This document shows, in pieces, positions 33,099 through 49,541 of a DNA stretch of 54,407 nucleotides. The DNA is from a virus. Lineage: Duplodnaviria > Caudoviricetes. Below the pieces are notes generated by a model, which had not been told where the DNA came from, searched no databases, and worked only from the letters and a program-made list of their open reading frames with translations. Position 1 is the first letter of the stretch; each line of letters begins with the position of its first letter. Position numbers and translations under genes: made by a program. The stretch spans positions 1 to 54,407 of the IMG/VR virus record IMGVR_UViG_3300032327_000339; one strand, given 5' to 3'.

Positions 33099-33388
33099 AC
33101 CCTCGTAATATCTCAAACCTGACATATATTCCTGTGAATTTTATCCTTTGATCGTAATCCCATACCAAATATACCTTGACAAACTGCCTGAAATATGCAT
33201 ACAAAATGCATCAAAAACACAGATAAAACTATCAGAAATGATATAAAACTGTGTAAAAATGCAGGATTTTATTCTGATTCCATATGTTTTTATATACATT
33301 GTATTATCTCCTATAGTAAATAGTATATGTCAAGGGTATTTTTGTTAAATCCCCGCAAATTTTTGACCTCTTCGTAATGTCTAACAAA

Positions 33389-33586
33389 TTAATCTTGGGG
33401 TCGATGCCACAAAGGTTGTGATATATTAATGTCTGATAAATCTAATTGTGATTGAGATCGGATTTCATTAAGAACCTTATCCATTATCCCTGTAATAGGT
33501 ATCATATATATACCTGCCTTTGTATAGTGTTCCATTAGCTTATATGCATATATTAAACCATCAGTATATGTTTTATCTTGATCCAT
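33389..33586 (-). CDS. hypothetical protein
   Basis: RBS GGAG. Confidence 0.65.
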   Translation of the reverse strand: MDQDKTYTDGLIYAYKLMEHYTKAGIYMIPITGIMDKVLNEIRSQSQLDLSDINISQPLWHRPQD

Positions 33587-33698
33587 TTTTTCTCCAAATT
33601 CCCGTGAATTTTTTATGTCTATCGTAATGTCTATTTATTTTATCTAGGGGTCGACCCTCCCCCACCAAAAGTCAATAGCTTTTGATAGGGGATTCTGG

Positions 33699-33929
33699 TT
33701 ATACAGGAAAGTCTGGTAACTTTACCGTTCCGTCATCATTGTATTCAGTAGGTTTGCCTAATCCGTCAAGTATTTGCATACCATTTATCCATTCATACGC
33801 ATTGGCTTTTGCTTGCCAATCCATTTCATCATTTGTAGCCCTTGCGAGCAACAACGGACTAATGCGTGTGTCTGAAAATACATCTGCTAACTTCTTCGCT
33901 TTCTGTCTGTGTTTTGCAATCCAAGTCAT
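33699..33929 (-). CDS. hypothetical protein
   Basis: RBS AAAGGA. Confidence 0.7.
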   Translation of the reverse strand: MTWIAKHRQKAKKLADVFSDTRISPLLLARATNDEMDWQAKANAYEWINGMQILDGLGKPTEYNDDGTVKLPDFPV

Positions 33930-33972
33930 AATTATCCTTTAGGTCTATTGTACCAAAAATGTGGGTGTTTGT

Positions 33973-34428
33973 CTAGACCCAATTACTATCATCTTTAATA
34001 AAGTCAACAGCCTCATCAATAGCATCATAGAAATTACTCTCACATACCATACCGTCAGGGAATTGGTCGTCATTGTATAGTTCCCACCAGGGATTGTTAT
34101 GATAAATCTCATATTCACGTTCTACTGACCATAGGTGTACTAGGTCAACTAAATCACTATCTGTTTCTGCAAACCGCTCTAACTCATCGGTGTAGCGACA
34201 GATATTAATCTCGTGTTCTACCCACTCGCCTGTGTCCATATCCTCACAAGGGATCGATAGATACATCTCCCCATTACGAGCGAGGTGCAAAGTACGTCCG
34301 TGATATTCCAATGTAGCCAAATCGGTACTTGATGTACCGTCTACATAGAACTCTGCCATTTGCTTATCTTCTGGCACCACCTCATAGTAGGTAATAGTTA
34401 CATCATCTCTGATTACTTTATTAGTCAT
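33973..34428 (-). CDS. acidic hypothetical protein
   Basis: ORF track, RBS GGAG. Confidence 0.75.
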   Translation of the reverse strand: MTNKVIRDDVTITYYEVVPEDKQMAEFYVDGTSSTDLATLEYHGRTLHLARNGEMYLSIPCEDMDTGEWVEHEINICRYTDELERFAETDSDLVDLVHLWSVEREYEIYHNNPWWELYNDDQFPDGMVCESNFYDAIDEAVDFIKDDSNWV

Positions 34429-34583
34429 TTAAAAACTCCGTTACTGTTTGGATAGCACTTGCATAACCGTGATGATATGCCCTGTCTAAATCTTCCTCGT
34501 GTTCGTCTAGCATTGACCAGTTATCTTCATCTTCTTTGATAACCTCTGAAAGAACGGTTTGCATATGTAAAAGTAGTGCTGAC

Positions 34584-34904
34584 TTATTCATTGATTAACT
34601 CCATATCTTCGTGCTGTAGGTAAAGGCTGTTATCTTCGATGTGGAAGTAATAACCCTGTGGAAGAAGTTCGTTAAACCAATGATATGCAATCTCAGCAAC
34701 ACCGAACAAATCCTCAACAGCATCTTCACTCTCACCAATCTGATTCTTAAGTTCTTTCCAATCTTCGATATTGATATCCCACCCAAAATGAATGGCAGTT
34801 TCAACTAACTGAATATCAAAAGATGAACCAGACATATGTGAACCGTCAATCCAACAACCCAAGTGGTCGGTAGTTACTTCTGATAGGTCATATACTTTCT
34901 GCAT
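34584..34904 (-). CDS. acidic hypothetical protein
   Basis: Start MQKVY, coupled to the upstream stop. Confidence 0.7.
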   Translation of the reverse strand: MQKVYDLSEVTTDHLGCWIDGSHMSGSSFDIQLVETAIHFGWDINIEDWKELKNQIGESEDAVEDLFGVAEIAYHWFNELLPQGYYFHIEDNSLYLQHEDMELINE

Positions 34905-35149
34905 TACCCCTCCAATTCTAATACTGCATTTGATAGTGCTTCGATACGTTCGGCAATCCAAGTTGGAACACCTAGGGCTTCTAAGTCCTCTGCTTCAATC
35001 TCTCCACCTGTGAACTCTGAACAACCATAAGTCATACAGTTCCAACCACAACCACCACCATCTTCATCGTCCCAAGTGGAGATGTTGGGGAACATAGCCT
35101 TTTCGCAATAGTCGCAATCAACGACTGTATCTTCTGTCCAAGTTTCCAT
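34904..35149 (-). CDS. acidic Cys-containing hypothetical protein
   Basis: CDYC...C...C....C. Confidence 0.7.
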   Translation of the reverse strand: METWTEDTVVDCDYCEKAMFPNISTWDDEDGGGCGWNCMTYGCSEFTGGEIEAEDLEALGVPTWIAERIEALSNAVLELEG

Positions 35150-35388
35150 TAGTCCTCCAAGTATCCGTAGTCATAAACATCTACATCAAATACATCATTC
35201 AGTTCCTCTTTGACTTCGATAGGAACGGTAGCAAACTCAATCGTATCCCAAACTTCCTGCCACTCTGACCAATCAAGGGTAGATAGTGTTTCGGCATTTA
35301 GGTCTGGTAGTAGGTGTAATAGACTATCTGGCACTACTACTTCCTGCCAAATGTCTTGTGTGCGTGTAAGTTGTCTAATTAATTTCAT
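35149..35388 (-). CDS. acidic hypothetical protein
   Basis: TAGGAT, 6 nt, ATG. Confidence 0.7.
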   Translation of the reverse strand: MKLIRQLTRTQDIWQEVVVPDSLLHLLPDLNAETLSTLDWSEWQEVWDTIEFATVPIEVKEELNDVFDVDVYDYGYLED

Positions 35389-35400
35389 AGGGAAATCCTA

Positions 35401-35592
35401 TCAGTTTTGGGGGGTATTGTCAATAGTAATTGGGGAAGGTGCATAAAAAGCTTCATTAAAGGTATCTACAACAACCTGACACATATCATCATATACCCAC
35501 TGTCTATCTATATCTAGGAACTGTGACTGAACAGTATCCATATAACTAATTAGATTCTCTTGTAGTTGTTCTTTAAGTTCAATTAGATTCAT
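35401..35592 (-). CDS. hypothetical protein
   Basis: ORF track, coupled. Confidence 0.65.
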   Translation of the reverse strand: MNLIELKEQLQENLISYMDTVQSQFLDIDRQWVYDDMCQVVVDTFNEAFYAPSPITIDNTPQN

Positions 35593-35762
35593 TATAACTT
35601 CTTCTTTCCAATAGTTACCTGTGGATAAACATTGTAGAACTGCTCTACAAACTTAAGGGCGGTATCCCAATATTGTAATTCAATACCTGTAGCATTATGC
35701 ATTTCAACTAGGTCATCTGCTAGTTGTTCTAATAGTTCTGATTCATATAACTTAAGCGTCAT
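35592..35762 (-). CDS. hypothetical protein
   Basis: Start MTLKLY. Confidence 0.6.
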   Translation of the reverse strand: MTLKLYESELLEQLADDLVEMHNATGIELQYWDTALKFVEQFYNVYPQVTIGKKKL

Positions 35763-35937
35763 CTTCCACTCCACTATCTTCTGGGTAATGTGTAATCTCT
35801 GTTACATCGATTGAATAAACTTCACCGAACATTGGGTACTCTTCCCAATTCCAGCCTTCCTGCTCTGCCTCTTCACGGCTGTCGGCTTCTACTTCATACA
35901 TAAAATTAACAGTTACTTCTACATCATAACTAGGCAA
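35752..35937 (-). CDS. small acidic protein, DpnD/PcfM-like pattern
   Basis: YDVEVT...EVEADSREEAE. Confidence 0.65.
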   Translation of the reverse strand: MPSYDVEVTVNFMYEVEADSREEAEQEGWNWEEYPMFGEVYSIDVTEITHYPEDSGVEDDA

Positions 35938-36151
35938 AATCTATCTCAACTCCTTGTGATTGGTAATCTACATTCTGTTCATCGTGGTCTACTGTATGAC
36001 CTTTTGCCTCAAAGTAGTCAAACATATCTTCATAGTCTATCGCTTCATCGGGGTCATTGTCAATAGTAAATGCTTCATATTCTTCATCAGTAATCTGAAT
36101 AGTAAATGTATGTTCAGATAATACTTCATATGTCTTAGTTAGAATTGGCAT
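35930..36151 (-). CDS. small acidic protein
   Basis: Start MPILTKTY after RBS GAGGAG. Confidence 0.65.
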   Translation of the reverse strand: MPILTKTYEVLSEHTFTIQITDEEYEAFTIDNDPDEAIDYEDMFDYFEAKGHTVDHDEQNVDYQSQGVEIDFA

Positions 36152-36311
36152 TTGATAACTCCTCAATATCATTTGAATCAAATTGACGACCATCTTCATC
36201 TTCAATAACGTGATAGTCTACGTCCCATTGGTTATCACAATACATTTGTTCTGCTTCTTGTAGGGTATCTGCTGTAATATATCCATAAACAATTACCTGG
36301 TAGTCTGGCAT
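36135..36311 (-). CDS. small acidic protein, DpnD/PcfM-like pattern (not in ORF track)
   Basis: MPDYQVIVYGYITADTLQEAEQ..., RBS AAGGAG, downstream of a module promoter. Confidence 0.7.
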   Translation of the reverse strand: MPDYQVIVYGYITADTLQEAEQMYCDNQWDVDYHVIEDEDGRQFDSNDIEELSNANSN

Positions 36312-36492
36312 ATTTCTCCTTGTTTGGTTGATACCTGTATCCTATCACAGACCACTGACATTTTCAATACTTTTTTCCGTGAATTTTTAACCTCTTCGTA
36401 AATAGGTACTTTTAAGGGTCGACCTAGATTTCCGTGAATTTTTTGATCCTTCGTAAATAGGCAGCTTTAGGGGTCGACCCCCAAGGGCAAAG

Positions 36493-36514
36493 AAAAAGCC
36501 CACCGAAGTGGGCT
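36493..36514 (-). terminator. intrinsic terminator
   Basis: On -: AGCCCAC-TTCG-GTGGGCT followed by TTTTCTTT. Confidence 0.8.
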
Positions 36515-36519
36515 AATCC

Positions 36520-36684
36520 TTACTTAACGATTTCGTAGGGGAACTCTCGTTCTCCGCTGTTAAGTTGTCGCTTGCTTGCATTATCTACAAACTTGCCATT
36601 CTGGTCTCGCACAACCGCACGTTCGGACTGTCCAAATCGTGTGTTCCACATTTCCTTGTGAATGAATAGTTCTTTCTTTGCCAT
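36520..36684 (-). CDS. hypothetical protein (not in ORF track)
   Basis: MAKKELFIHKEMWNTRFGQSERAVVRDQNGKF..., RBS AAAGGAG. Confidence 0.7.
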   Translation of the reverse strand: MAKKELFIHKEMWNTRFGQSERAVVRDQNGKFVDNASKRQLNSGEREFPYEIVK

Positions 36685-36767
36685 TTGTTTCTCCTTTGTT
36701 AGAAAATAGAAGGGTTTTTGGTTATGTGGTTATCCCTTGCCACATCTTTTCTACCTACCCGCAGAAC

Positions 36768-37208
36768 CTAGCCCTCATTACAATAGACTACAAATGTCTC
36801 GTAGTCTGTGACTTCGTAGTCAGAGTTTTCACTTGATACATCAAATGAGAAATCGCTACCGTCTACACTATCGGCTTCAATGCCAATCGGTAGAGTCATT
36901 GTAACTGAGAAAGTTACATTCACATCAACGACTACTTCGTTGGTGAGTTCAATGCCAAGCAAACGAGCAATCTCATCTGCGTGTTCGCCAAGTTCCTCAT
37001 AGTTTTCTACAAGGTATTCACGAACATTCTCAATGCTTGCATCTAGTTTGGCAATACGCTTTGTGCGTAGTGTGTCATTGTTCTTTAGTGATGTTACCTC
37101 GTGTGCTTCTAGCACAAGCGGTGTCACGCCTGAATAAACAGGCTGGTGAACATTCACGACAACTTTAGCGTATGGGTCATAAGTTACTTCTGGTGTTGTT
37201 TCGTTCAT
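36768..37208 (-). CDS. acidic hypothetical protein
   Basis: ORF track, RBS AGGAG. Confidence 0.75.
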   Translation of the reverse strand: MNETTPEVTYDPYAKVVVNVHQPVYSGVTPLVLEAHEVTSLKNNDTLRTKRIAKLDASIENVREYLVENYEELGEHADEIARLLGIELTNEVVVDVNVTFSVTMTLPIGIEADSVDGSDFSFDVSSENSDYEVTDYETFVVYCNEG

Positions 37209-37209
37209 T

Positions 37210-37899
37210 TTATTCTCCTGATTGGGTAGTGGTTGATAGTTCTAATTCTAGCGTATCTTCATCTGGATTGTCAAGACAGTTTCCAGATTCTGCCCAACCA
37301 CATTGTTCACAAGGAATGTCTAGTTCCTCAAAATCTGCGTGTGTTGGATTGTCAATGTATCGGTCTTTCACAAGTTCACCATTAGAATAAACTAAGATAC
37401 CTGCAAAGAAATTGGCTTCCTCTGTAATCTCATAACTAAAATCAAGATTAGGGAAACGCTTTGCGATTGCGTCATAGGCTTCTACGGCTGGCGACCAAGC
37501 GGTTTGGAAGTACCAGTGGAAATAATAGTCACCGTCATTGTTTTGGTCAAAGTCACCAATCTCATCTCGGTGTATGGTAATGTCCCACTTAGTACCCCAG
37601 TTACGAACATTCCAATGATACCAGTCCATACCTGTCGCAAGTTCTTCCTGAAAGTGTTCCATAGTAGACATACCCTCTGGGGTAGGCTTTACTGTGGAAG
37701 TTCCAAAGTATGCGTCAAGGTCGGTTGGTGTGATGAAGTTCCAGAAAACACCCTTAGTGTTCTCATCTACAACAACTTCCTTTGACTTCCAATCTTCCCA
37801 ATGAGAAGTGTGTGGCTGGTCACAGAAGTCAATAAATTCATTTAGTTCTGCTTCGGTCTTTGCAGATACGATTACAGAATTACTTGTCCAGTTTGGCAT
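37210..37899 (-). CDS. DUF1281/YubB ferredoxin-like family protein
   Basis: MPNWxxN...WYHWNVRNWGTKWD...FQTAWSP. Confidence 0.8.
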   Translation of the reverse strand: MPNWTSNSVIVSAKTEAELNEFIDFCDQPHTSHWEDWKSKEVVVDENTKGVFWNFITPTDLDAYFGTSTVKPTPEGMSTMEHFQEELATGMDWYHWNVRNWGTKWDITIHRDEIGDFDQNNDGDYYFHWYFQTAWSPAVEAYDAIAKRFPNLDFSYEITEEANFFAGILVYSNGELVKDRYIDNPTHADFEELDIPCEQCGWAESGNCLDNPDEDTLELELSTTTQSGE

Positions 37900-37960
37900 T
37901 TGTTTTCCTTTTGGTAGGTTATGGAAATAGTCTATCAGTTATGGGCGGTAAAGTACAGAG

Positions 37961-38158
37961 TTATTCTGAACTATTTTCATCTAGGTTTACAACATCTAAG
38001 TCAAAACCATTCCAGTCATAGGTAGCACCTTTGATTAGTGGTAGACCGTCCCATTCATTACGAATGTGTGACTCGTCAATTTCATCTGCTTCACCATCAA
38101 AGTCAATCACGATAGAGTCAGATACATAAGCGGTGAAGTTGATTTCGTACTGTGGCAT
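37961..38158 (-). CDS. small acidic protein
   Basis: Start MPQYEINF after RBS GAAAAGGA. Confidence 0.7.
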   Translation of the reverse strand: MPQYEINFTAYVSDSIVIDFDGEADEIDESHIRNEWDGLPLIKGATYDWNGFDLDVVNLDENSSE

Positions 38159-38290
38159 TTTATTTCCTTTTCGGTAGGTTGATAAATCAAGCATACCAGA
38201 TAGCACTGACATTTTCAATAGTTTTTTCCGTGTTTTTTTTGAAGCCCTCGTAAATAGAAGCTTTGGGGGTCGACCCCCAGGATCCAAACG

Positions 38291-38363
38291 TACCCCCAGT
38301 AGGACTTGAACCTACGACCCACAGATTAAAAGTCTGTTGTTCTACCATCTGAACTATGGAGGC
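38291..38363 (-). tRNA. tRNA-Lys (TTT)
   Basis: Reverse complement GCCTCCA...ACAGA-CTTTTAA-TCTGT...GGTTCAAGTCC...TGGGGGT-A. Confidence 0.92.
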
Positions 38364-38383
38364 TTGCCCCGAAGGGCAGAGGA

Positions 38384-39376
38384 TTAAACCCCTGCCACTT
38401 CGTTTACGATTGACAACAGACGATTTTTCTCTGCGTTTACAACAGGGTCGAAACCTGCTGTACCCATTAGCAACGACTCATCATTACCACGAGAAGTTCT
38501 GAACCAGTCAATGCGTTCTGTGAGTGCATTGTAAGCACCCCAAGCATTTCCTGCAATCATTCCATTGGTGTCACCACCATAGATTTCATCAAGCAGTTCA
38601 ATTTTATTTTCCCACTTAGTGAAAGCACCTTTTTTATCTGACTCTGGCTTAGGGTATGCCAAGTCTACAATCTCATTGAACTGAACCTTAGTTAGTTCTG
38701 TTTCAATCATAGTCTGTGCAAGTTTGTCAAACTCATCAAGGTAAGCATTGGCAAGACCAAGAGCCTCACGAGCCTGTGCAACTCTACCGTCAATAGACTG
38801 TGTGTGTCGCAACTTGAATGAGTGCTTTGCACCCTTACGGAATACTGCGGTGTGAGTATTCATACAGGTCAAACGAATTGGTGTAACGGTTGCCTGAACA
38901 GCACTAGAACCATCGTGGCTAGTAGAGATTGCAAGATAGTTCTTTACAACATCACGAACACCATTTGGGTCAAGGATTGTTTCACGCTCTAGTGCTAATG
39001 CACCGAACACGACACGACCATTCTTTAGTGAACCAGCAACTTCCCAACGCCCACCGTCAAGCAGGTTGTCACCAAAAGCAAACAATTCCTCATTCTGCAA
39101 GGTCTTGTAACGCTGTCCAACAACAGACAAAACATCTGGGTGATTATCGGCAGGGTGGTCACGAACAACCATAAAGGCTGGCTTGTCCATAGTGTATTCA
39201 TCAGGCATAGGAATGTCCTCAAGACGAACATTCCAAGAGTTTAGATTTGCTAGTGATAGCATTTCTGATGTAGTAACTTCATCTTGGAAAACAGTTCCAA
39301 GTTGGTGGTAGGCAGGTGTACGCAAGGAAGCATAAGAAGCCTTACCGTTTACGATTTCGATTTGGTCGATAGCCAT
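38384..39376 (-). CDS. DUF932 (TIGR03299 phage/plasmid-like) protein
   Basis: YH.LG...VG.RY..LQN...AGSLKNGR.VF...SHDGS..VQA..TPIR..C.NT...LRHT...WGAYNA.TE. Confidence 0.88.
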   Translation of the reverse strand: MAIDQIEIVNGKASYASLRTPAYHQLGTVFQDEVTTSEMLSLANLNSWNVRLEDIPMPDEYTMDKPAFMVVRDHPADNHPDVLSVVGQRYKTLQNEELFAFGDNLLDGGRWEVAGSLKNGRVVFGALALERETILDPNGVRDVVKNYLAISTSHDGSSAVQATVTPIRLTCMNTHTAVFRKGAKHSFKLRHTQSIDGRVAQAREALGLANAYLDEFDKLAQTMIETELTKVQFNEIVDLAYPKPESDKKGAFTKWENKIELLDEIYGGDTNGMIAGNAWGAYNALTERIDWFRTSRGNDESLLMGTAGFDPVVNAEKNRLLSIVNEVAGV

Positions 39377-39711
39377 TTTTTCTCCATTCGATTGTTTGAT
39401 AAACTAATCATAGCACAAAGGTACGACATTTATCAAGGTTTATTTTAATAAACTTCAGGGAATTTTTAGGCTCTTCGTAAATGAGAGCTAGGGGGGTCGA
39501 CCCCCAGATGGATCACAGCCAACTGCTGAATCCACCTAGTAGGAGTAAGATAAAAACAACAGTTAGGAAATACTTCACGACTCTAACCTCTCAATAAGCA
39601 ATTCATAAAACTTTTGATAATCCTCAGAATCCTCAAATGTATCTGCCCACATTAGTAGTTCATCTTTATGGTGTCGGATTCCATCTTGAAATCCTTCCTC
39701 ATAGTTAGACA

Positions 39712-39912
39712 TTAGAAAGACCCCCCACACATTTCTGCAAGTTTATCAGATACTAAATAGTAGTCTGTACCCATAGCAGGAAATTCGTGAACACTTAGCC
39801 AGTTAAAACCATCATAGATTTCTCTATCCTCAAAATGTTCGGTGGTAGTTCCCCAATCTAATCTAAAATGGTTTTCCTCTGTATCCCACATAACTACATA
39901 GTGATACTGCAT
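39712..39912 (-). CDS. hypothetical protein
   Basis: ORF track, coupled. Confidence 0.65.
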   Translation of the reverse strand: MQYHYVVMWDTEENHFRLDWGTTTEHFEDREIYDGFNWLSVHEFPAMGTDYYLVSDKLAEMCGGSF

Positions 39913-42282: not shown

Positions 42283-42366
42283 TATGGACTCCTTTTCTTT
42301 TGGTAGGTTTATGAAAATAATCTTATCATAGGGGTCTGACATTTTTGCCAGACCCCCACAATAAAA

Positions 42367-42525: not shown

Positions 42526-42677
42526 TTTATTTCTCCTTGTTGTTTGGGATACTCCAATAGTATCAGATAACACCGACATTTACAATACTTTTTTTCAACT
42601 TTTTTTATTTATTTTTCGGTGAATTCCAAGACCCCTCGTAAAAGGGATCTTGGGGGGTCGACCCCCGAAAGGGCTGG

Positions 42678-42887
42678 CTATTCGCCAACCCTCTCGCAAG
42701 TTGTGTAGAAATTCAAAATGCTATCGGCAGGAATGTAAACAATCTCATTACCGCTTAGAGTTTCAAAAGATAACAAACCATTTTCAACTTTGTATTTGTT
42801 ATCAGGGTGAACATTTGGATACTCATAAGGATTAGCAAAATCGTTTGGCTGTTCCTTGTATGTGATAAATAAATTAGTTTGAAACAT
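42678..42887 (-). CDS. hypothetical protein
   Basis: Start MFQTNL after RBS GAGGA. Confidence 0.6.
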   Translation of the reverse strand: MFQTNLFITYKEQPNDFANPYEYPNVHPDNKYKVENGLLSFETLSGNEIVYIPADSILNFYTTCERVGE

Positions 42888-42979
42888 TCTAGTAGTCCTC
42901 TTTCGCTTCTGGTACGCTTGCACCGCATAGCATACAGGTTGGGTTTTCTCGGTCAGTTACATTTACAATCGGATGAACC

Positions 42980-43186
42980 TTACACATTGGTTAGTTCCTT
43001 TCGTTCGCTTTCGGTGAGTCCACCGTAAGTTCCATACTCAATGTTATTCTTTAGAGCAAAATCTAAACACTCTGACTTTACGACACACGCATTACACAAT
43101 GCCTTTGCCTTTACTACTTTGCTTTTTAGTTCTGAGAAAAAAATCTTGTAGTCTGCTTCTAAGCAGTTAGCGTTATCCTGAAACAT
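42980..43186 (-). CDS. whiB: WhiB-family Fe-S transcription factor (second copy)
   Basis: ANC...FF...AKALCNACVVKSECL..AL....YGTYGGLTESER. Confidence 0.9.
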   Translation of the reverse strand: MFQDNANCLEADYKIFFSELKSKVVKAKALCNACVVKSECLDFALKNNIEYGTYGGLTESERKELTNV

Positions 43187-43237
43187 AGTTTGCCTTTCGA
43201 TAGGTTGATGTAAACATCTTAGCAGATAGGTCTGACA

Positions 43238-43480
43238 TTATTCGTCAAAACTGAACATAGAGTCCCAACAAGTTCCACAAATACCTGTCATAAAACGCTC
43301 ACGAATGGCAGGTGGATAGTTCACAAGAACCGTCTGAACATTTGCACCGTTGTTGTAAAGGAACAAACTTTCGGGGGTAATCTCAATAGACAACACTTCA
43401 TTACAGGTAGGGCAAGGTTGTGATGAAACTACATAGGCGGATAGGTCAGCGGTCTTGATTGGGTTTAGTAGAGTGAACAT
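43238..43480 (-). CDS. Zn-finger hypothetical protein
   Basis: CPTC...RERFMTGICGTCWD. Confidence 0.75.
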   Translation of the reverse strand: MFTLLNPIKTADLSAYVVSSQPCPTCNEVLSIEITPESLFLYNNGANVQTVLVNYPPAIRERFMTGICGTCWDSMFSFDE

Positions 43481-43798
43481 TTAGAACCTTTCGTTAGTTT
43501 GATAAGTTTATCTTAGCATAGAGGTCTGACATTTTTAGTGTTCATAGTGCTTGGTCGGCTGTGTATTTGCGTAGGCAATTTCACACTCATAGCAACCAAT
43601 GTGGTATTCAATTAGGTCGGAATGGTAAAAACCATTTTGGTCAAAATAATCTAGAATCTTTTTTATTGTTTCCATAGGTACACCTTACCACAAGGGTCTG
43701 ACATTTTTGGTACCAAAACACCTTAAATTCCAGGCAATTTTTGGATCTATCGTAATCGGTCAAAGCTATGGGGGTCGACCCCCGAAGGGTGAGGACTG

Positions 43799-44131
43799 CT
43801 AAGAGTCCTCATCTTGGTCAAGCCAAGCATCATCAATGTGGTGTTCATCATAACCGTCACACGCATCAGACTCGCACCAAGCATTTAGGTGGTGCTGTTC
43901 GATAATTGCCCAAGCAGGTGCAACATTAAAGCCCTTGTAAGATACACCCTCTGGCATAGGGATTTCTCGGTCAAAGTCATCTTCCCAATAAGCATCTATT
44001 GCTTCGATGCAAGGCTGTACCATAGACAAGGGTACGGGTGGGTAATGATTACCCTGCAAGTGCCAAGCAAGTTGCTGTTCCATAGTGATTGCTCCGTTTT
44101 CTGCAATTCCAAGTGCTGTGTTGTATCCCAT
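43799..44131 (-). CDS. hypothetical protein
   Basis: HLQGNHYPPVP...HHLNAW, RBS AAAGGA. Confidence 0.75.
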   Translation of the reverse strand: MGYNTALGIAENGAITMEQQLAWHLQGNHYPPVPLSMVQPCIEAIDAYWEDDFDREIPMPEGVSYKGFNVAPAWAIIEQHHLNAWCESDACDGYDEHHIDDAWLDQDEDS

Positions 44132-44279
44132 TAGTATCCCATTCCTTTGTGTTTTGTTTTGCGAGTGTAGGCTTTTTTGTTTTTGTGTGGTTGGGCTGCA
44201 TTACTGGAACGCAGTCCAAGTCGTGCCTGAAGTTGCTCAGGTGTCGCTGGTGTTGCTGTGTATTGTTTCTTTTTCATAG

Positions 44280-44513
44280 TTACACAATACCACATAGGTC
44301 TGACAATTCTTGACTTGCTTCGTCAATAGCGTTTTGTAGTTTCTGACGGATTTGGTTTTTGCCATAACCATACTCTAAGCCATAAGCCATAATGTAACCT
44401 GCTGTAACCCAACCCAAACGGCGGTCTGCTGTTGCAGGGTACTTGATTTTTTCTACCTGATAGGTGATGTTCACTAGTCGCTCTACTAGGTCTGGCATAA
44501 CTGGGTTTGACAT
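44280..44513 (-). CDS. hypothetical protein
   Basis: Start MSNPV after RBS GAAAGGA. Confidence 0.65.
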   Translation of the reverse strand: MSNPVMPDLVERLVNITYQVEKIKYPATADRRLGWVTAGYIMAYGLEYGYGKNQIRQKLQNAIDEASQELSDLCGIV

Positions 44514-44632
44514 TTGCTGTCCTTTCGTTGGGCTGATGTAAACATCATACCACAGGGGTCTGACATTTTCAGGCATTTTTGAAGGTGTGTCGTAATCGGT
44601 TTTTGTGCGGGGGTCGACCCCGAAGGGTGGGA

Positions 44633-44842
44633 CTATGCGTCCCAACCAAACAGACCTGCTTCCATAGCAATGTCTTCACGACCCTCGTATGGGTCTTGTG
44701 GCTCTTCATCTTCATACTCGTATTCATCATCAAAATCTAAGTATGGGTCATAAGCGTCAATGAGGGCGTTGTAGAAATTTTCATTATCTACTTCTTCGTT
44801 CCAGATTTCGGTCATTGTTTCCTGAGTGTAGAACTCGTCCAT
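44633..44842 (-). CDS. extremely acidic small protein
   Basis: Asp/Glu/Tyr-rich (DFDDEYEYEDEE), RBS GGAG. Confidence 0.7.
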   Translation of the reverse strand: MDEFYTQETMTEIWNEEVDNENFYNALIDAYDPYLDFDDEYEYEDEEPQDPYEGREDIAMEAGLFGWDA

Positions 44843-45028
44843 AGTGGACTCCAATCGCTAGGTTGATAAAATTATCATAGCATAAGGGTCTGACATTTTT
44901 CGGTGAATTTTGAAAGTTTCTCTTAATACTTTAGATCTTGGGGGGTCGACCCCTTTCGGGGTCAGGTTATGAACCTGAACACGCACCTAGTATTAGCAGA
45001 ATAATTATTCCCCAGATAAAATAATTCA

Positions 45029-45562
45029 TTATTCCGCAGACCCCCTAAAAATAATCCAGATTAGGGCTTGCGTTGCACGAGGTGTTAGCCCAATTTCTTG
45101 TGCCACATCCACAACGGCTTGCGACATTTCTCGGTATTGTGTTTTGTTTGGTGAATTGGTATCTAGCCCACCTGCATAGCACATCCACACATCTATTGTC
45201 ACCGCATTTTCATCACCTGCGATTGCACGAGCGAACGCATTAGTTTTCAAACCCTTGAGAGCATTGAAACCTAGCACCAAACTATTTTCTGCCATTCGCA
45301 AATTGTTGCCTAGTCCATTAGCCTTGCCAGTGTGTGCGAACTCTAACGCTTGCACTACATTGCGATTCCAACGCTGACGAGGTGAGAATGATGAAACAAC
45401 ACTAGCACCAATTTCTAGTGTTGCATTTATGCCACGAGCATTTAGGATTCGTGCAACATCGTGTGCAACTAATTCTGCATCGGCATACCACTGCACAGCC
45501 AATTCGACTTGGGCAACGGTTGAGGTCTTAGCGATTGCGAGGTAGCGGTTGAAGTAGGTCAT
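45029..45562 (-). CDS. conserved phage protein, possibly HhH/glycosylase-like fold
   Basis: WY..A...SP...W..N...KT.AF...I.G....VTIDVWM...QALIW. Confidence 0.7.
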   Translation of the reverse strand: MTYFNRYLAIAKTSTVAQVELAVQWYADAELVAHDVARILNARGINATLEIGASVVSSFSPRQRWNRNVVQALEFAHTGKANGLGNNLRMAENSLVLGFNALKGLKTNAFARAIAGDENAVTIDVWMCYAGGLDTNSPNKTQYREMSQAVVDVAQEIGLTPRATQALIWIIFRGSAE

Positions 45563-45732
45563 TTTTTCCCCTAACGGTTGATGATGTTATCATCCTAGCA
45601 TAGAGGTCTGACATTTTTTGCATTTTTTTGAAAAAAGTCATTTTTTTCGGTGAATTTAAAAAGCTTCTCTTAATGAATCCTGGATCTAGGGGGGCGACCC
45701 CTTTCGGGGGCGGTGTCAAGCCACCACGCTTA

Positions 45733-45906
45733 TTAGACGAATGGAATTTCTAAGTCACCAAAATCATCAGCAAACATTTCTGGATAGTGGTGTGCGTATT
45801 GCCAAAGAGTCATCACGCCTTTGTATTCATTACAGGCTAGGCAAACTTTCACATCATCACCAACGGTTGATGAACAAAAAATACAGATTAGGGTTTCGGG
45901 TGTCAT
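45733..45906 (-). CDS. Cys-rich micro-protein (not in ORF track)
   Basis: ICIFC...VCLACNEYKGVM, RBS AAGGAG. Confidence 0.65.
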   Translation of the reverse strand: MTPETLICIFCSSTVGDDVKVCLACNEYKGVMTLWQYAHHYPEMFADDFGDLEIPFV

Positions 45907-46103
45907 AGTGTCTCCTTATGTGTTTGACATTTATTTCCTGTACCGTTTGGAATTACTGTGTAGCAAACTACGCAAGCAACCTGAACAGCGTTTGGTGTTG
46001 ATAGTGCTAACTCAAGTTCCACTTTATCTGCGAAACTTATTTGGTCTAGGTTTTTCCAACCTGCACCATTTTCATCTGCACTAAAAATTTCTATGTATCC
46101 CAT
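45903..46103 (-). CDS. hypothetical protein
   Basis: MGYIEIF...GAGW, CVVC...CQTH. Confidence 0.7.
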   Translation of the reverse strand: MGYIEIFSADENGAGWKNLDQISFADKVELELALSTPNAVQVACVVCYTVIPNGTGNKCQTHKETL

Positions 46104-46117
46104 TTTGGAATTCCTTT

Positions 46118-46318
46118 CTAGTATTCGGATAGGTCTATTGTGGTGTAGCGTGGTGTGCGTGTAACTGTGTTATTCCAATTTACAGTTAGCACCTCGCCAC
46201 CGACAACAATGCCATACCATTTATCTTTTACGGTGTGAATGTTGCTGATTAGCACATCTGACTTTTGGGTGACGATAGAGCCACCGATTAGCAAGTTCTT
46301 TAGTTTATCAAAATCCAT
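46118..46318 (-). CDS. hypothetical protein
   Basis: Start MDFDKL after RBS GGAG. Confidence 0.65.
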   Translation of the reverse strand: MDFDKLKNLLIGGSIVTQKSDVLISNIHTVKDKWYGIVVGGEVLTVNWNNTVTRTPRYTTIDLSEY

Positions 46319-46626
46319 TTTGTTCTCCATTCGTTGATACCAACATCTTAGCATAAGGGTCTGACATTTTTACCACTTTAGGGCACGTTTCATAGAAACT
46401 TTATGAATCCAACATTTGGCACACATAGCACCTTTGCCAGCCTTTTGGCAGTCTTTGCAGTTAGTCATTTCTGACCCCTTTCGTTTTGCTTACTCTGTAA
46501 GCATAGCAGTCAGGTCTGACATTTTTGGTATCAACACACCTTTTTTATGTGAACATTAGGTGAACAATAACTCACAAGTTATCCACAGGTGGGGTCGACC
46601 CCCTTGGGGTCTTGGTGTCAAGGATG

Positions 46627-46806
46627 TTAAAAGGGTGTGTCCATTTCAAATGCCTCATCCCAACAGCCAGCATCTTCACGCATCTGGTCATAGAAAAAAT
46701 CGGGGTCACACATAGGACACATAAGCATTTCGCACTCGCAAGCAACATCCATCCAATCAGGGGTAGAGGTCTTGAAAGCGGTTGGGGCAGAAGTATCAAA
46801 AGACAT
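46627..46806 (-). CDS. acidic Cys-rich micro-protein
   Basis: Start MSFDT after GAAAGG, CECEMLMCPMC. Confidence 0.6.
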   Translation of the reverse strand: MSFDTSAPTAFKTSTPDWMDVACECEMLMCPMCDPDFFYDQMREDAGCWDEAFEMDTPF

Positions 46807-46933
46807 TTTTGACCTTTCGGGTTGGCAATAAAAACATACTAGCATACAGGTCTGACATTTTTGGTAACGACACGCTGGATCTTTGGGGTCGACCCCTCGC
46901 ACCCACCTTTTCAGGTGGGGCGGTGGTCATTAT

Positions 46934-47098
46934 TTATCTTGTAGCCTTTTCAAAAACTTCACGATTGAAATTTGGGTTATCGTTTTCAAACATTTCTGAA
47001 AACTCATCAACAAGCATTTTGAATGCATCAGCGTTCAAGGCGTGTTGAAACATAAAAAGAATTTCTGCGGTTGCTACATAGTCTTTGCGTGTCATCAT
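46934..47098 (-). CDS. hypothetical protein, MTRKDY...DNPNF type (not in ORF track)
   Basis: MMTRKDYVATAEIL...FENDNPNFNREVFEKA. Confidence 0.7.
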   Translation of the reverse strand: MMTRKDYVATAEILFMFQHALNADAFKMLVDEFSEMFENDNPNFNREVFEKATR

Positions 47099-47214
47099 TA
47101 TTTTTTCACCGTTGCCTTTGCGATAGTTTGAATTTTCTTTGCGTTGTCTTTGCGTTCTTGTTCACGCTGTTCTTGCACTAGTGCTTTGAATTCATCAAGT
47201 TTCATTTTGTCCCC

Positions 47215-47397
47215 TTAGTTTTTTTCATCTAGTTTAGAAATAAATAATGCAATTCGCAAAACTGTATCTGCTTGCGACCACATAGCAGAACCACGCATAG
47301 CCTCTGCACAATCTGGGTGTGAACCCTTGCACTCGCAAGTGTAAGCGAATGGCATAAAGCGGTCTTGGATTAGTTGAGATAATTCTGAGTTTTTCAT
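47215..47397 (-). CDS. hypothetical protein
   Basis: Start MKNSEL after RBS AAAGGA. Confidence 0.6.
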   Translation of the reverse strand: MKNSELSQLIQDRFMPFAYTCECKGSHPDCAEAMRGSAMWSQADTVLRIALFISKLDEKN

Positions 47398-47452
47398 TTT
47401 CTGTCCTTTGTTTGTTGTTGATAAATCTAGCATAGCATAAGGGTCTGACATT

Positions 47453-47581
47453 TTATGAGAATTCGTATTCGTCAGGTTCGCAAATAATGCAATAGCCTGT
47501 CGTTTCCCAATCGGTAAGTTTGTCACCACACTCAACGCACTTAGTAGTAGTGATGTTCTCAACATAGGTTAGTTCTGTCAT
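47453..47581 (-). CDS. Zn-finger micro-protein, paralog of 49542..49658 (not in ORF track)
   Basis: KCVECGDKLTDWETTGYCIICE. Confidence 0.7.
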   Translation of the reverse strand: MTELTYVENITTTKCVECGDKLTDWETTGYCIICEPDEYEFS

Positions 47582-47873
47582 TTTCTGTCCTTTGCTCGGG
47601 CTTACTCTGTAAGACTAGCATAGGGGTCTGACATTTTTGGGATATTTTGGGGTGTGTCGGGAAAAATCTTTTTTATTTTTTATCGGTGTGTCGACTTGAC
47701 AGCTTTGGATCAGGGGGGTCGACCCCCCGAAGGGTCGGTTTGTCAATCATTGTCATCACCTGCAGAAATAATCATCATCATAAGCAAATAAAAAAATGTT
47801 AGACTAAGCAATCCAAGAATTGCTAGGAATGCATTATCGCTATCAGATAGCCAAGTTGTTATTGCGTTAAACA

Positions 47874-48104
47874 TTAGTTCTCCCATTCATCTAAAGTTTC
47901 ATCAGCCCAAGGTGCTAGGTGATAGTGTTCAGGACAATACCAAGTGATAAAGTCCACATCTTTTGTGCGAACCTTGAATCGGTTAGGGCATTGGTAAGAC
48001 TCTGCACAAAATGCTAGTTCGGTATCCACTAGGCGTGAATTGTCTGGATTATTCTTGACAAACTCTAAGTTATCAAGCACATCATCTGAAACATAAACAG
48101 TCAT
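47874..48104 (-). CDS. hypothetical protein
   Basis: RBS GAAAGGA after a module promoter. Confidence 0.7.
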   Translation of the reverse strand: MTVYVSDDVLDNLEFVKNNPDNSRLVDTELAFCAESYQCPNRFKVRTKDVDFITWYCPEHYHLAPWADETLDEWEN

Positions 48105-48153
48105 TAGTTTTCCTTTCGTTGTAGTTACACTCTAGCACAAGGGTCTGACAATT

Positions 48154-48276
48154 TTATGCACATTCGCAAGTGTCATAACCGCTATCATCTAGATAGTTCC
48201 AATCGTTGCAGGTGTCGCACCACATAACCTCATCAACACTTACGCCAAACTCGTTTGCAAATTCTGTCTTATTCAT
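48154..48276 (-). CDS. Cys-rich micro-protein (not in ORF track)
   Basis: WCDTC...TCECA, RBS AAAGGA. Confidence 0.6.
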   Translation of the reverse strand: MNKTEFANEFGVSVDEVMWCDTCNDWNYLDDSGYDTCECA

Positions 48277-48534
48277 TTTCTATCCTTTGTTTGTTTCTTA
48301 TAGTTATAACTTAGCATAGGGGTCTGACATATTTGGTAGCGACACGCCCAAGCTAGGGGTCGACCCCTTTCGGGGCGGTGTTATGTCTTGCGTGTTATGT
48401 GTAGGTGCAAGCCTTGCCTATCCTGTGACACACTTACACGAATAGATTTTATTAGCGTGATGATTTTGTTTTTCATTTGCCTGACCTCATACCTAGTAGC
48501 AATAAGATGATAACGATTAGCATAACGGTGTGCA

Positions 48535-48804
48535 CTACACATCACCACGCTTTAGTTGATTTAGTTCTGTCGTTATTGTTTTGATTGCGTGTTGTGTATT
48601 TGCATTACTAGCAACGCCCTCAATCACTCGTGCAGTTTCTACTACGATAGTACGAGCAAACGCAACAGCAAACAGTTTCATTCCTAGTGGGATAGCAACG
48701 ATTATGCCAACAATAAACAACACAATGATGACGGCAAAGAATTGGAAGATGTTACCAATCAAGTGCCAAACATCTGCAAGGGGGCTAGTGATAAAGTCCA
48801 ACAT
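48535..48804 (-). CDS. membrane protein
   Basis: Long hydrophobic segment, RBS GAAAGGA. Confidence 0.7.
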   Translation of the reverse strand: MLDFITSPLADVWHLIGNIFQFFAVIIVLFIVGIIVAIPLGMKLFAVAFARTIVVETARVIEGVASNANTQHAIKTITTELNQLKRGDV

Positions 48805-48878
48805 AGTTTTCCTTTCGGGTAGGGTACTAGCATAGCATAGGGGTATGACATTTCTGCCATACCCCTAGACATTAGGCA

Positions 48879-49103
48879 CTAGGCAAAATCATCAAAAGGG
48901 TTATCGCTATTCCATACCTTTGGCGGTGTGAACGGAACAACCTTGCGTTGTGCTAGTCCGTCTACGATTACCTTGCGAGTACGCAACACGACAACAATAG
49001 CAACAATGACGGCAAGAACTTTGGTGCTAATGTAGAACTCAAAGGCTGAACCGATACGCAAGTCTACATAGTTGGCGGTTAGGTCAAGGGTTAGTGCATT
49101 CAT
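48879..49103 (-). CDS. membrane protein
   Basis: One TM segment, RBS GAAAGG. Confidence 0.7.
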   Translation of the reverse strand: MNALTLDLTANYVDLRIGSAFEFYISTKVLAVIVAIVVVLRTRKVIVDGLAQRKVVPFTPPKVWNSDNPFDDFA

Positions 49104-49129
49104 TTTATTACCTTTCGTTGTGCTAGTGC

Positions 49130-49172
49130 TTATTTGCTAGGCTCACCCTTGCGGGATTATTTGCTAGGCTCA
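49130..49172. repeat. 16-bp direct repeat TTATTTGCTAGGCTCA flanking a mini hairpin
   Basis: 49130-49145 and 49157-49172 are identical, with spacer CCCTTGCGGGA. Confidence 0.9.
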
Positions 49173-49243
49173 TCACTAACTGCTAATAAGTACACTCTAG
49201 CATAGGGGTCTGACATTTTTGGTAGGTAGGTAGGTGTGTTAGG

Positions 49244-49259
49244 TGTGAGGAACATCACA
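49244..49259. promoter_or_regulatory. CRP/GlxR-type site
   Basis: TGTGA-GGAACA-TCACA between divergent promoters. Confidence 0.5.
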
Positions 49260-49386
49260 TTATCTGTCGGTGTGTCGACTTGACAAGGGCAAGTCGGGGG
49301 GGTCGACCCCCAGATGTTACACAAATGTTACATAGAATAGCGTATTGGTGTCAGGAAATGTCGGTGGGCTATGCTACATTATAACT

Positions 49387-49512
49387 ATGAACACAGATAC
49401 AGATTTGATGAACTACTGCTACTACTGCGATGGGACTATGAACTACTCACATATTGCTTGCGACTGTAACTATGATGTGTGTGATGATTGCCACCCTATG
49501 GGTTGCGAATAA
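49387..49512 (+). CDS. Cys-rich micro-protein (not in ORF track)
   Basis: MNTDTDLMNYCYYCDG...CDC...CDDCHPMGCE, leaderless after a + strand module promoter. Confidence 0.65.
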   Translation: MNTDTDLMNYCYYCDGTMNYSHIACDCNYDVCDDCHPMGCE

Positions 49513-49541
49513 TTGTCAGACCCCTATGATAAGGTGAAACT

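Follow-up and report, generated by a model that had tools for sequence, protein, structure and literature searches.

What the repeated intergenic module does in an array of small viral genes, and whether and at which of its parts those genes are exchanged, is the question raised by the IMG/VR record IMGVR_UViG_3300032327_000339 (Duplodnaviria; Caudoviricetes). The record is a whole viral contig of 54,407 bases, rated about 51% complete, and was analysed over its full length (hereafter, the window). An initial annotation made from the letters of this contig described a series of self-contained gene cassettes at 33101-49535, delimited by a three-part module in which a small hairpin is fused to a 12-bp palindrome (GGGGTCGACCCC) and followed by TTACGA-type boxes and a promoter, and proposed a platform for host-takeover or anti-defence genes that is reshuffled by recombination at this module. 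We observed the anatomy of the array, its conservation, its reordering among relatives, and the positions of several exchange points. We consider it probable, if well short of assured, that the array is a promoter-cassette shuffling system like the promoter/stem-loop elements (PeSLs) of T4-like phages, present here in a different phage family and operating by general homologous recombination between promoter blocks.

The promoter core and the units that it opens

A promoter core of the form AAAATGTC[A/G]G-N7-TGnTAnnnT is present in 23 copies on the minus strand and in two divergent copies on the plus strand, and is found nowhere else in the 54 kb. The -35 position is taken by an A-tract or TTGAAA, the spacer carries the invariant box ATGTC[A/G]G, and the -10 element, TGnTAnnnT, is of the extended type and stands at a spacing of 17 bp. 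A scan with a position-weight matrix placed the hits at 36373-49228 on the minus strand and at 49346 and 49501 on the plus strand, with scores of 14.8-47 against a null maximum of 12.6; because the matrix was trained on 21 of the window copies, which match by construction, the informative part of the scan is the remaining four copies and the absence of hits elsewhere.

The same pattern was found in at least 120 viral contigs, and in all five of the near-complete relatives the cores are grouped in one region each with a divergent pair at one edge, where a reversed-pattern control returned 0-1 hits. Among 575 cores from 130 sources, 400 of 533 have their start codon 20-45 nt past the -10 element (peak 28-32), 17 are leaderless with the ATG exactly 6 nt past it, and 80 of 532 have ATGTC placed -1 to +3 nt from the end of the upstream stop codon; loci L023-L142 of this set were retrieved by the promoter pattern, so the motif is there by construction and the phasing of the genes around it is not. 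Actinobacterial sigmaA promoters bear TGnTAnnnT without a strong -35 element and commonly serve leaderless starts, and because the cores match these promoters in form and in their leaderless starts, we read them as predicted promoters for the host RNA polymerase, from which expression of the array would be early. No phage sigma factor was found in five records, and in the search for the T7-type RNA polymerase family the positive control matched nowhere. A generic sigma70 scanner gave no enrichment in the window (46 vs 51.1 +/- 7.5), because most of the array promoters are without a TTGACA-like -35 element.

Fifteen of the 16 palindromes are followed on the minus strand by one conserved promoter within 25-108 nt, and both RBS-led (ribosome binding site) and leaderless starts are present, as first described. 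Eight further minus-strand units have a promoter with no palindrome, and four of these begin within 2 nt of the stop codon before them. What the cassettes have in common as a delimiter is thus the promoter and not the palindrome; the palindrome-bearing module delimits the units that carry it, the eight promoter-only units having been missed. The block of promoter and leader is about 45 nt long and recurs about every 560 bp. The originally proposed extent of the array holds for the most part, except that a plus-strand mini-array of two promoters and three leaderless or tightly coupled Cys-rich micro-ORFs (open reading frames) reaches 49762, and that the stretch from 36.3 to about 33.1 kb is one promoter-less operon. 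The units are as follows, with the position of the spacer box (ATGTC or its TTGTC variant) given for each promoter.

49352-49762, plus: divergent mini-array, with promoter ATGTC 49358 leading to a leaderless ATG at 49387 (41 amino acids, Cys-rich)
Mini-array continued, plus: stop codon 49510-12 embedded in the second promoter, TTGTC 49513, leading to a leaderless ATG at 49542 (38 amino acids) and then an ATG at 49658 (34 amino acids)
49194-49310, minus: module 1, with palindrome 49299-49310, TGTCAAGTCGACACACC box, promoter ATGTC 49216, and a 90-nt leader to the ATG at 49103
48829-48857, minus: promoter-only unit, ATGTC 48851, whose spacer CATACCCC can pair with GGGGTATG immediately upstream
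48308-48367, minus: module with CCCC-GAAA-GGGG hairpin, palindrome 48356-48367, GCGTGTCG box, promoter ATGTC 48330
48129-48157, minus: promoter-only unit, TTGTC variant 48151, starting 2 nt past the upstream stop codon
47612-47726, minus: module with CCC-TTCG-GGG hairpin, palindrome 47715-47726 with symmetric TTGACA / TGTCAA flanks, promoter ATGTC 47634
47429-47457, minus: promoter-only unit, ATGTC 47451, 1 nt past the upstream stop codon
46836-46896, minus: module with variable hairpin CCCACC..GGTGGG, palindrome 46885-46896, promoter ATGTC 46858
46500-46602, minus: module with palindrome 46591-46602, DnaA-box sequence 46579-46587, promoter ATGTC 46522
46345-46373, minus: promoter-only unit, ATGTC 46367
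45592-45701, minus: module with CCCCC-GAAA-GGGG hairpin, one-mismatch palindrome 45690-45701, ATTAAGAG..AAATTCAC, promoter ATGTC 45614, followed by the DUF7178 gene
44874-44953, minus: module with GACCCC-GAAA-GGGGTC hairpin, palindrome 44942-44953, ATTAAGAG..AAATTCAC, promoter ATGTC 44896
44544-44621, minus: module with palindrome 44610-44621, GATTACGA box, promoter ATGTC 44566
44284-44312, minus: promoter within the 3' end of the preceding ORF, TTGTC variant 44306, with ATG 44277 at 6 nt past the -10 element
43682-43782, minus: module with variable hairpin GAGGACT..AGTCCTC, CCC-TTCG-GGG, palindrome 43771-43782, GATTACGA, promoter ATGTC 43704, leaderless ATG 43675
43510-43538, minus: promoter-only unit, ATGTC 43532, 2 nt past the stop codon; homology with the relative L006 ends inside it
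43216-43244, minus: promoter-only unit, ATGTC 43238, overlapping the stop codon, upstream of the WhiB gene
42557-42665, minus: module with palindrome 42654-42665, 10-bp hairpin with TTTTACGA loop, AATTCAC, TTGTAA at -35, promoter ATGTC 42579
42320-42348, minus: promoter-only unit, ATGTC 42342, whose spacer CAGACCCC pairs with upstream GGGGTCTG (hairpin 42321-42366)
41535-41621, minus: module directly after tRNA-Asp, with palindrome 41610-41621, TTTACGA, AATTCAC, TTGAAA at -35, promoter ATGTC 41557, leaderless ATG 41528
40855-40939, minus: module with palindrome 40928-40939, 8-bp hairpin with TTACGA loop, TTGAAA at -35, promoter ATGTC 40877
39407-39504, minus: module upstream of DUF932, with palindrome 39493-39504, TTTACGA hairpin, TTGATA at -35, promoter ATGTC 39429
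38190-38277, minus: module directly after tRNA-Lys, with palindrome 38266-38277, TTTACGA, TTGAAA at -35, promoter ATGTC 38212
36339-36514, minus: canonical intrinsic terminator 36497-36514 with T-run, palindrome 36470-36481, doubled TTTACGA..AATTCAC with a degenerate second palindrome, and the last promoter, ATGTC 36361
33141-36311, minus: long operon, fed from promoter 36361 and free of internal promoter cores, with about 13 small ORFs, most of them acidic
33590-33658, minus: degenerate module with one-mismatch palindrome 33647-33658, TTACGA and AATTCAC, without a promoter core

At two of the promoter-only units (42321-42366 and 48823-48863, minus) the pairing of the spacer box with upstream sequence gives a hairpin that includes the spacer, as GGGGTCTG..CAGACCCC at one and GGTATG..CATACC at the other, and L006 has a compensatory version, GGGGTATG..CATACCCC, at the orthologous site. 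Short inverted repeats also extend from the last bases of the -10 element to 9-12 nt beyond it; among 517 unique promoters from all loci, arms of at least 4 occur in 40% (9.6% in shuffles) and arms of at least 5 in 15% (2.4% in shuffles). There are 44 distinct arm sequences, GATGATaacATCATC and CTTACagaGTAAG among them, and since they are also present at leaderless promoters these repeats cannot lie wholly in RNA. Several other contigs of the metagenome run that holds the whole stretch match the window over just ~44-nt pieces, 49130-49173 and 47056-47099, and then diverge from it; the former lies within the 90-nt leader of the first cassette and the latter at the start of gene 46934-47098, and these pieces may be short conserved elements common to co-occurring phages.

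The cargo named in the initial annotation was recovered in the form of WhiB, DUF932 and DUF1281_C proteins, two tRNAs and acidic proteins, several of the last having more than 25% D+E. Pfam families were matched above cut-off in 5 of the 30 scanned cargo ORFs. The Zn-finger label given to some of the Cys-rich micro-proteins rests on CxxC motifs, their Pfam matches being sub-threshold. The position of the cargo suggests a possible role in host takeover or anti-defence. The identified genes are as follows.

45029-45562, minus: DUF7178 protein (Pfam)
42980-43186, minus: WhiB-family protein, 68 amino acids (Pfam E 5.5e-19)
41628-41704, minus: tRNA-Asp(gtc), with a palindrome 6 nt later
38384-39376, minus: DUF932 protein, 330 amino acids (Pfam), used as the anchor gene for finding relatives
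38290-38363, minus: tRNA-Lys(ttt), with a palindrome 12 nt later
37210-37899, minus: DUF1281_C (Api92-like ferredoxin-like domain) protein (Pfam)

Reordering among relatives and the positions of exchange

Eighteen viral contigs with a relative of the DUF932 gene were retrieved, and eight of these were compared with the window in detail. The promoter-rich 10 kb upstream of DUF932 contain 32 genes in the window, and each of the eight shares 7-17 of them. Collinearity of the relatives had been set beforehand as a test, and they are not collinear: summed over the eight relatives, which share phylogeny and so are not independent, order is lost for 26 of 100 shared genes in the promoter-rich part vs 3 of 62 in the promoter-poor operon (odds ratio 6.9, p 5.6e-4). 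Junctions that bear a promoter were broken in at least one relative more often than other junctions in eight of nine reference genomes, significantly so in three (L006, p 0.023; L016, p<0.001; L007, p 0.004), and in the window itself 12 of 15 junctions with a promoter were broken vs 10 of 21 without one (p 0.083). Across the 130 sources, families led by a promoter had less conserved upstream neighbours (median 0.38 vs 0.50, p 0.003; 19 vs 93 families), and agreement in the upstream neighbour was lowest, at 0.133, where promoter status differs between the two loci; with the pair-level result given below this adjacency test is mixed, and it lends weak support to the link with promoters.

Two switches could be placed at the level of bases. 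In L006 (positions 780-1150) the sequence upstream of a promoter is that of window module 44942, palindrome and boxes included, and the sequence downstream is that of gene 43238-43480 (w32), which lies elsewhere in the window; because all three sequences agree over about 45 nt of core and leader, the partner switch falls inside the promoter/leader block. The second concerns identity between the window and L006, which is 60-75% over gene 43799-44131 (w30) and 93-100% from about 43756 through the promoter and gene 43535-43675 (w31), after which homology ends in the next promoter core, between spacer and -10 element, and the window has an extra gene. The protein of this 46-codon gene (43535-43675, minus), which stands behind module 43771, is 98% identical to its L006 homolog where its neighbours are at 60-76%, and the gene looks like a recently exchanged single cassette.

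Contigs of related strains from three other runs gave further positions. Promoter-to-start blocks cover 7.9% of the 20 kb and contain 14 of the 24 endpoints of large joints; ten of the 12 such joints have one end or both in a block. The "large" joints were chosen by hand among the joints listed, with small indels and same-length diverged segments dropped, and come from assembled contigs that could be chimeric at repeats. The 24 endpoints comprise those of ten tabulated joints (14 of 20 endpoints in such blocks) and of two gene-sized skips added by hand, 39714-39890 and 42674-42890. Support is best for joint 49367->49530 (shorter side, 250 letters), in which the two plus-strand promoters are fused in register and exactly one cassette is lost. 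Reshuffling at the module, as first proposed, is thus supported for the promoter and 5' leader and not for the palindrome: no mapped exchange endpoint lies in a palindrome, one (40918) lying 10 nt away.

These positions bear on the integron-like alternative, in which a dedicated recombinase would cut the palindrome and release circular cassettes. Perfect conservation of the palindrome and its place at the border of many cassettes are what such a site would show, and the authors who described PeSLs speculated on a protein that targets the GGGG...CCCC stem (PMC2839356). Against it, the tyrosine recombinase family (PF00589, Phage_integrase) and the serine recombinase family (PF00239, Resolvase) gave 0 matches in the window (~51% complete) and in the records of four relatives, of which one is rated 100% complete, and the controls were positive, matching in 14/14 (PF00589) and 12/14 genomes. 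No integrase had been claimed in the initial annotation either, and its comparison with integrons fails on this absence and on the promoter of each cassette, which integron cassettes do not have. Eight cassettes and many relatives are without the palindrome. In the assembled contigs of the run that holds the entire stretch, which is probably the window's own source, there is no circle junction and no backward joint is listed; backward joints in the other runs are indistinguishable from reordered genomes. We regard site-specific recombination at the palindrome as very improbable.

Several results, along with the limits on the promoter scan and on the joints given above, weigh against promoter-mediated shuffling. 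Genes are gained and lost in the promoter-less operon as often as in the promoter-rich part, and the modules are therefore not needed for gene turnover and are tied only to reordering. The junction test is not significant in six of the nine genomes, L011 has no enrichment (odds ratio 0.76), and 4-11 promoter-less junctions per genome are also broken, so that breakpoints, expected at the module, are enriched there and not exclusive to it. At the level of pairs, the fraction of loci with the same upstream neighbour is about equal for genes that are promoter-led at both loci (0.345) and genes led by a promoter at neither (0.302; 130 sources). The G/C hairpins of the window have no U-tract, a single canonical terminator lies on the coding strand of the array, and terminator-like sites are not enriched (18 vs 12.7 +/- 3.9). 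No circular excision product was found in the assembled contigs.

Selection alone could leave rearrangements of intact genes at unit boundaries and so mimic promoter-mediated recombination, and a purely regulatory array, in which the repeats are just promoters and 3'-end hairpins such as other large lytic phages have in their early regions, rearrangements arise anywhere by ordinary illegitimate or homologous events and selection keeps those at unit boundaries, is the alternative to which the equal gain and loss, the broken promoter-less junctions and the undifferentiated pair-level test lend themselves. Gene-exact replacements without a promoter in related strains (42674-42890 and 39714-39890) also fit it. 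It does not predict that changes of order are concentrated in the promoter-rich part, that the two base-level switches fall within the ~45 nt of shared promoter and leader and not anywhere in the intergenic sequence, or that deletion 49367->49530 joins two promoter cores in register. We hold the purely regulatory explanation to be possible and rather unlikely.

Under promoter-mediated shuffling, the region at about 33.1-49.8 kb would be the early-gene region of a lytic actinophage of about 100-115 kb, built from about 25 very short transcription units that each open with the same host-type promoter. The promoter would be followed by a fixed leader of about 30 nt with an RBS, or by a leaderless ATG 6 nt past the -10 element, and then by one to five small ORFs or a tRNA. 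Fifteen units would be preceded by the 3'-end element of the previous unit, a variable hairpin and an invariant palindrome, often with TTACGA and A-rich boxes, that may insulate against or terminate read-through transcription. Because the ~45-nt block recurs about every 560 bp, promoter and leader may serve as a portable patch of homology, and cassettes that express themselves would be lost, gained, replaced and reordered by homologous recombination between blocks, for which the UvsX/RecA-like system of the phage is a plausible agent. The same recombination mechanism has been proposed for the PeSLs of T4-like phages (PMC2839356, PMC4122927). If this is true, promoter-mediated shuffling, so far described in T4-like phages that infect Gram-negative bacteria, also occurs in an abundant and large group of actinophages, comprising at least 120 viral contigs with the promoter and cultured Streptomyces relatives suited to bench tests; the promoter model would be a tool for predicting early genes, leaderless ones included, in these phages, and about 30 small early proteins would be marked as candidates for host takeover or counter-defence.

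The palindrome at the 3' ends of units

With at most one mismatch, GGGGTCGACCCC occurs in 16 copies (14 perfect), all at 33647-49310, where 0.00 were expected from 100 shuffles. The spacing of 294-2823 bp and a degenerate 17th copy inside module 36470 agree with the roughly 17 palindromes at 0.3-2.8 kb first counted. The module proved less uniform than its three-part description: it does repeat, and the CCC-loop-GGGG hairpin adjoins the palindrome directly in 10 of 16 copies and not in the rest, TTACGA is present in 9 of 16 modules, AA[A/T]TCAC in 6 of 16 and both in just 4 of 16, and the interval from palindrome to promoter has several subtypes. A hairpin around the TTACGA box (stem of at least 6 bp in 19% of 148, vs 3% of shuffles) is confined to a subset and for that reason was not treated as a defining part.

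The palindrome lies 6-75 nt (median ~16) past the upstream stop codon or tRNA end, and we assign it to the 3' end of the unit before it. Mean pairwise identity of the 12-mer in the window is 0.98, vs 0.28 and 0.32 (about random) in the 25-nt flanks, which argues for selection on the sequence of the palindrome itself, loop included, and not on the stem alone; invariance over the full length points to sequence-specific recognition by some factor.

The palindrome is also replaced by lineage. The window and the relatives L005 and L006 have GGGG[T/G]CGACCCC, L007 has CGGGGTACCCCG, and L016 and L126 have CGGGGCACCCCCG; these versions are mutually exclusive and each is confined to the array, with GGGGTCGACCCC present 14 times in the window and 5 times in the L006 record. 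In a record of 100,657 bases all eight copies of CGGGGTACCCCG are within 37.5-44.1 kb and the window version is absent, and the reverse holds in the window. Upstream of DUF932, at the orthologous site, 8 of 8 sequences keep the TTACG box, A-tract, -35 element, ATGTC, TG.TA and RBS and differ in the G/C element only; for L011 and L008 this element is GGGGTCGCCCC followed by TTTTT after a tRNA, resembling a small intrinsic terminator. The cassette design does not require the palindrome, since no perfect repeated one is present in several relatives that have 10-18 promoters. Three palindrome types can be set side by side: GGGGTCGACCCC, CGGGGTACCCCG and GCGGGGCACCCCCGC. An outer inverted repeat, TTGACA...TGTCAA, flanks the palindrome in window module 47715 and, by eye, in many L016 and L007 modules; its arms are placed roughly symmetrically, about 20-26 nt from the centre, and its right-hand copy runs on as TGTCAAGTTACGACACGCC.

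One way to account for the element is as an RNA hairpin, acting as terminator, processing site or 3'-end stabiliser and made uniform by gene conversion. Its place shortly after stop codons and tRNA ends would suit such a hairpin, as would RNA folding, which predicts GGGGG-UCGA-CCCCC in most copies, usually behind a second, variable hairpin, and the UUCG and GAAA tetraloops that adjoin it; the terminator-like element of L011 and L008 points the same way. An element kept for structure alone should tolerate changes in the loop and compensatory changes in the stem, however, whereas all 12 positions are fixed in 14 of 16 copies beside random flanks, and a gene conversion tract of just 12 bp is implausible. 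Nor do the window copies have a U-tract, which intrinsic terminators require with the mycobacterial RNA polymerase. The stem-loops of PeSLs are likewise of the GGGG...CCCC type (PMC2839356). We think it doubtful that an RNA hairpin is the whole of the element's function, although the palindrome probably descended from a terminator hairpin.

The other possibility, to which we give similarly limited credence and which would add to promoter shuffling and not replace it, is that the palindrome is the binding site of a lineage-specific phage protein that blocks or insulates transcription or shuts off the early region. The near-invariant 12-mer with its loop bases, the mutually exclusive versions in close relatives, the exchange of the G/C element alone at the DUF932 site while neighbouring boxes stay, and a 13-bp palindrome of its own at the same place in the Streptomyces phage NootNoot would all be expected of a protein site. 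A screen for a protein that co-varies with palindrome type gave no candidate among the shared array genes, with the window, L006, L007 and L016 about equidistant. Many relatives with 10-18 promoters are without a perfect repeated palindrome, the distance from palindrome to promoter varies over 25-108 nt, and the stoperators that might serve as a precedent are asymmetric and bound by a monomeric immunity repressor of temperate phages (PMC9283540), where the present phage group is without an integrase. In its fullest version, which we put forward with still more reserve, the palindrome, possibly together with the TTACGA box, would be the recognition site of a fast-evolving phage protein that insulates cassettes or switches off the early array, site and protein being replaced together by lineage to form a stoperator-like layer of control over promoter shuffling, in the terminal-repeat early region of a lytic phage. 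What reads a 12-bp palindrome that is perfectly kept within a genome and yet replaced between close relatives is the question that these observations raise.

Use of the palindrome as a restriction site (it contains GTCGAC, and the L007 version GGTACC) or as a Chi-like site was considered and set aside. The DnaA-box sequence TTATCCACA, present inside module 46591 (46579-46587) and, by eye, in modules of L016, L011 and L015, has 10 perfect copies in the window vs 0.82 expected, a number reached by 0/100 shuffles. Five of these lie within 140 bp in the non-coding gap 32957-33098 (plus), where the array ends downstream, and make this gap a candidate for an origin of replication or for a site that titrates DnaA. 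Beyond it a strong sigma70-like promoter (TTTACA-17-TATAAT with TG) is found on the minus strand at 32917-32889.

The phage, its cluster-BE relatives and comparison with known systems

We identify the window phage as a Stanwilliamsviridae-like actinophage. Its large terminase subunit (TerL) is 62% identical to those of the Streptomyces cluster-BE phages Forrest and Gilson (~128 kb), and metagenome runs that contain parts of the array are labelled freshwater, riverine or lake, four such runs having been examined. The window encodes a fragment of a DNA polymerase and, at 1.7-5.2 kb, a UvsX/RecA-like recombinase, a PD-(D/E)XK nuclease and RuvC, the RecA, Cas4-like and RuvC genes to which the initial annotation had pointed. 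Its other genes include those for the large terminase, tail proteins, several glycosyltransferases, ThyX and Hsp20, and its RNA genes are nine tRNAs and one tmRNA. An Rfam scan of the window at gathering thresholds found tRNAs and the tmRNA only, with just the two tRNAs in the array, and megablast of the array against 50,697 phage records gave no match.

Seven tRNAs and the tmRNA (tag peptide GATQNALALAA) are clustered on the plus strand at 11898-18292, and a tRNA/tmRNA cluster is likewise reported for cluster-BE Streptomyces phages (PMC5764925). Three glycosyltransferase-like genes and a nucleotide-sugar epimerase gene lie at 5336-6310, 29478-31553, 52432-53391 (plus) and 10559-11569 (plus), and may mean glycosylation of DNA or virion. 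G+C content is 0.40-0.44 in the array (33000-50000) vs 0.33-0.39 in the remaining contig, and GC and AT skews are reversed in the array relative to the rest, in agreement with its minus-strand coding.

Homologs of the DUF932 protein that are about 50% identical occur in cluster-BE phages, encoded on the minus strand by gene 2-3, at 1.2-2.4 kb from the left end; the homolog is gene 3 of NootNoot (NC_042009.1; Stanwilliamsviridae, Samistivirus), and is found at two places per BE record. The direct terminal repeat of NootNoot is 10,787 bp long and contains 20-25 ORFs mostly without assigned function, and the terminal repeats of cluster BE have been likened in size to those of T5 and SPO1 (PMC5764925). 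Its left end resembles the window array in having the DUF932 gene, small minus-strand genes with spacers of about 110-270 bp, and ThyX just upstream, and in the order of parts within spacers, which run from the stop codon through a GGGCCC-TTCG-GGGCCC hairpin, a GTCSG..CSGAC palindrome and a TTGnnn-nTGTCCC...TG-TAGACT promoter to the leader. It differs in having its own palindrome (13 bp, 10 copies between 752 and 10058), hairpin and -10 element (TAGACT), and in a higher GC content. We take the window array to be the ortholog, by position, of the small-gene early region at the BE left end, with a module architecture that is conserved between deeply separated phages and component sequences that are not. 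Should the palindrome be read by a phage protein, the platform would be common to Stanwilliamsviridae-like phages from those of soil Streptomyces to those of freshwater hosts. The module is not described in the available text of the genome announcement for these phages, in which "motif", "intergenic" and "palindrom" have 0 occurrences (PMC5764925), and no description of it was found in the literature on cluster BE/Stanwilliamsviridae or on freshwater whiB-encoding actinophages, supplements lying outside the search.

With integrons the array shares the layout of a linear series of small, exchangeable, mostly single-gene units bounded by a repeat. The comparison fails on defining features, because neither recombinase family was found and every unit has its own promoter in place of a single Pc; there is also no attC-type site, the exchange points lie in the promoter, and the array repeat is a perfect palindrome of 12 bp, where attC sites are imperfect and 57-141 bp long. 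Lambdoid morons, the host-takeover module in the terminal redundancy of SPO1 and the pre-early region of T5 are likewise autonomous promoter-gene(-terminator) units that sit between other genes, or dense arrays of small early genes with many strong promoters at the genome end that is first to enter; to our knowledge, their regulatory elements have not been reported as one near-identical repeat used for exchange.

Stoperators of cluster A mycobacteriophages are sites that stop transcription elongation when bound by a temperate immunity repressor (PMC9283540, PMC6550527). The palindrome is like them in being a short, lineage-specific site present in many copies at unit ends (14-16 in the window and 8 in the record G001), and differs in that stoperators are asymmetric, genome-wide and temperate, whereas the array site is a perfect palindrome restricted to the early array of an apparently lytic phage.

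PeSLs, known from the pairs RB49/phi1, PST/T4 and nt-1/KVP40, combine strong sigma70-like early promoters with GGGG...CCCC stem-loop terminators in hyperplastic regions to which indels and replacements map, and form mini-circles by crossovers between the -10 element and the start codon (PMC2839356, PMC4122927). The analogy drawn with them in the initial annotation is borne out: in the array, too, repeated elements of hairpin and host-type promoter flank small, mostly family-less genes whose order and cargo differ between relatives, no dedicated recombinase is found, and rearrangements map to the repeated element, though here not exclusively, with exchange points in the promoter and leader that correspond to the PeSL crossovers. 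The stem-loop lies upstream of 15 of the 23 minus-strand promoters and is without a U-tract, termination being known for PeSLs and only predicted for the array. The differences are that a siphovirus-type actinophage takes the place of a T4-like myovirus, with a host of another phylum; that the promoters, extended -10 promoters of an actinobacterial kind, share a conserved spacer box and often serve leaderless genes; that one third of the units are promoter-only and fused to the preceding stop codon; and that the stem-loop takes the form of an invariant 12-bp palindrome, which one lineage has in a version other than the next. In PeSLs terminator activity has been demonstrated, and so have mini-circles. 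With promoter and hairpin sequences of its own, the array, as we read it, resembles the PeSLs in mechanism and not by descent.

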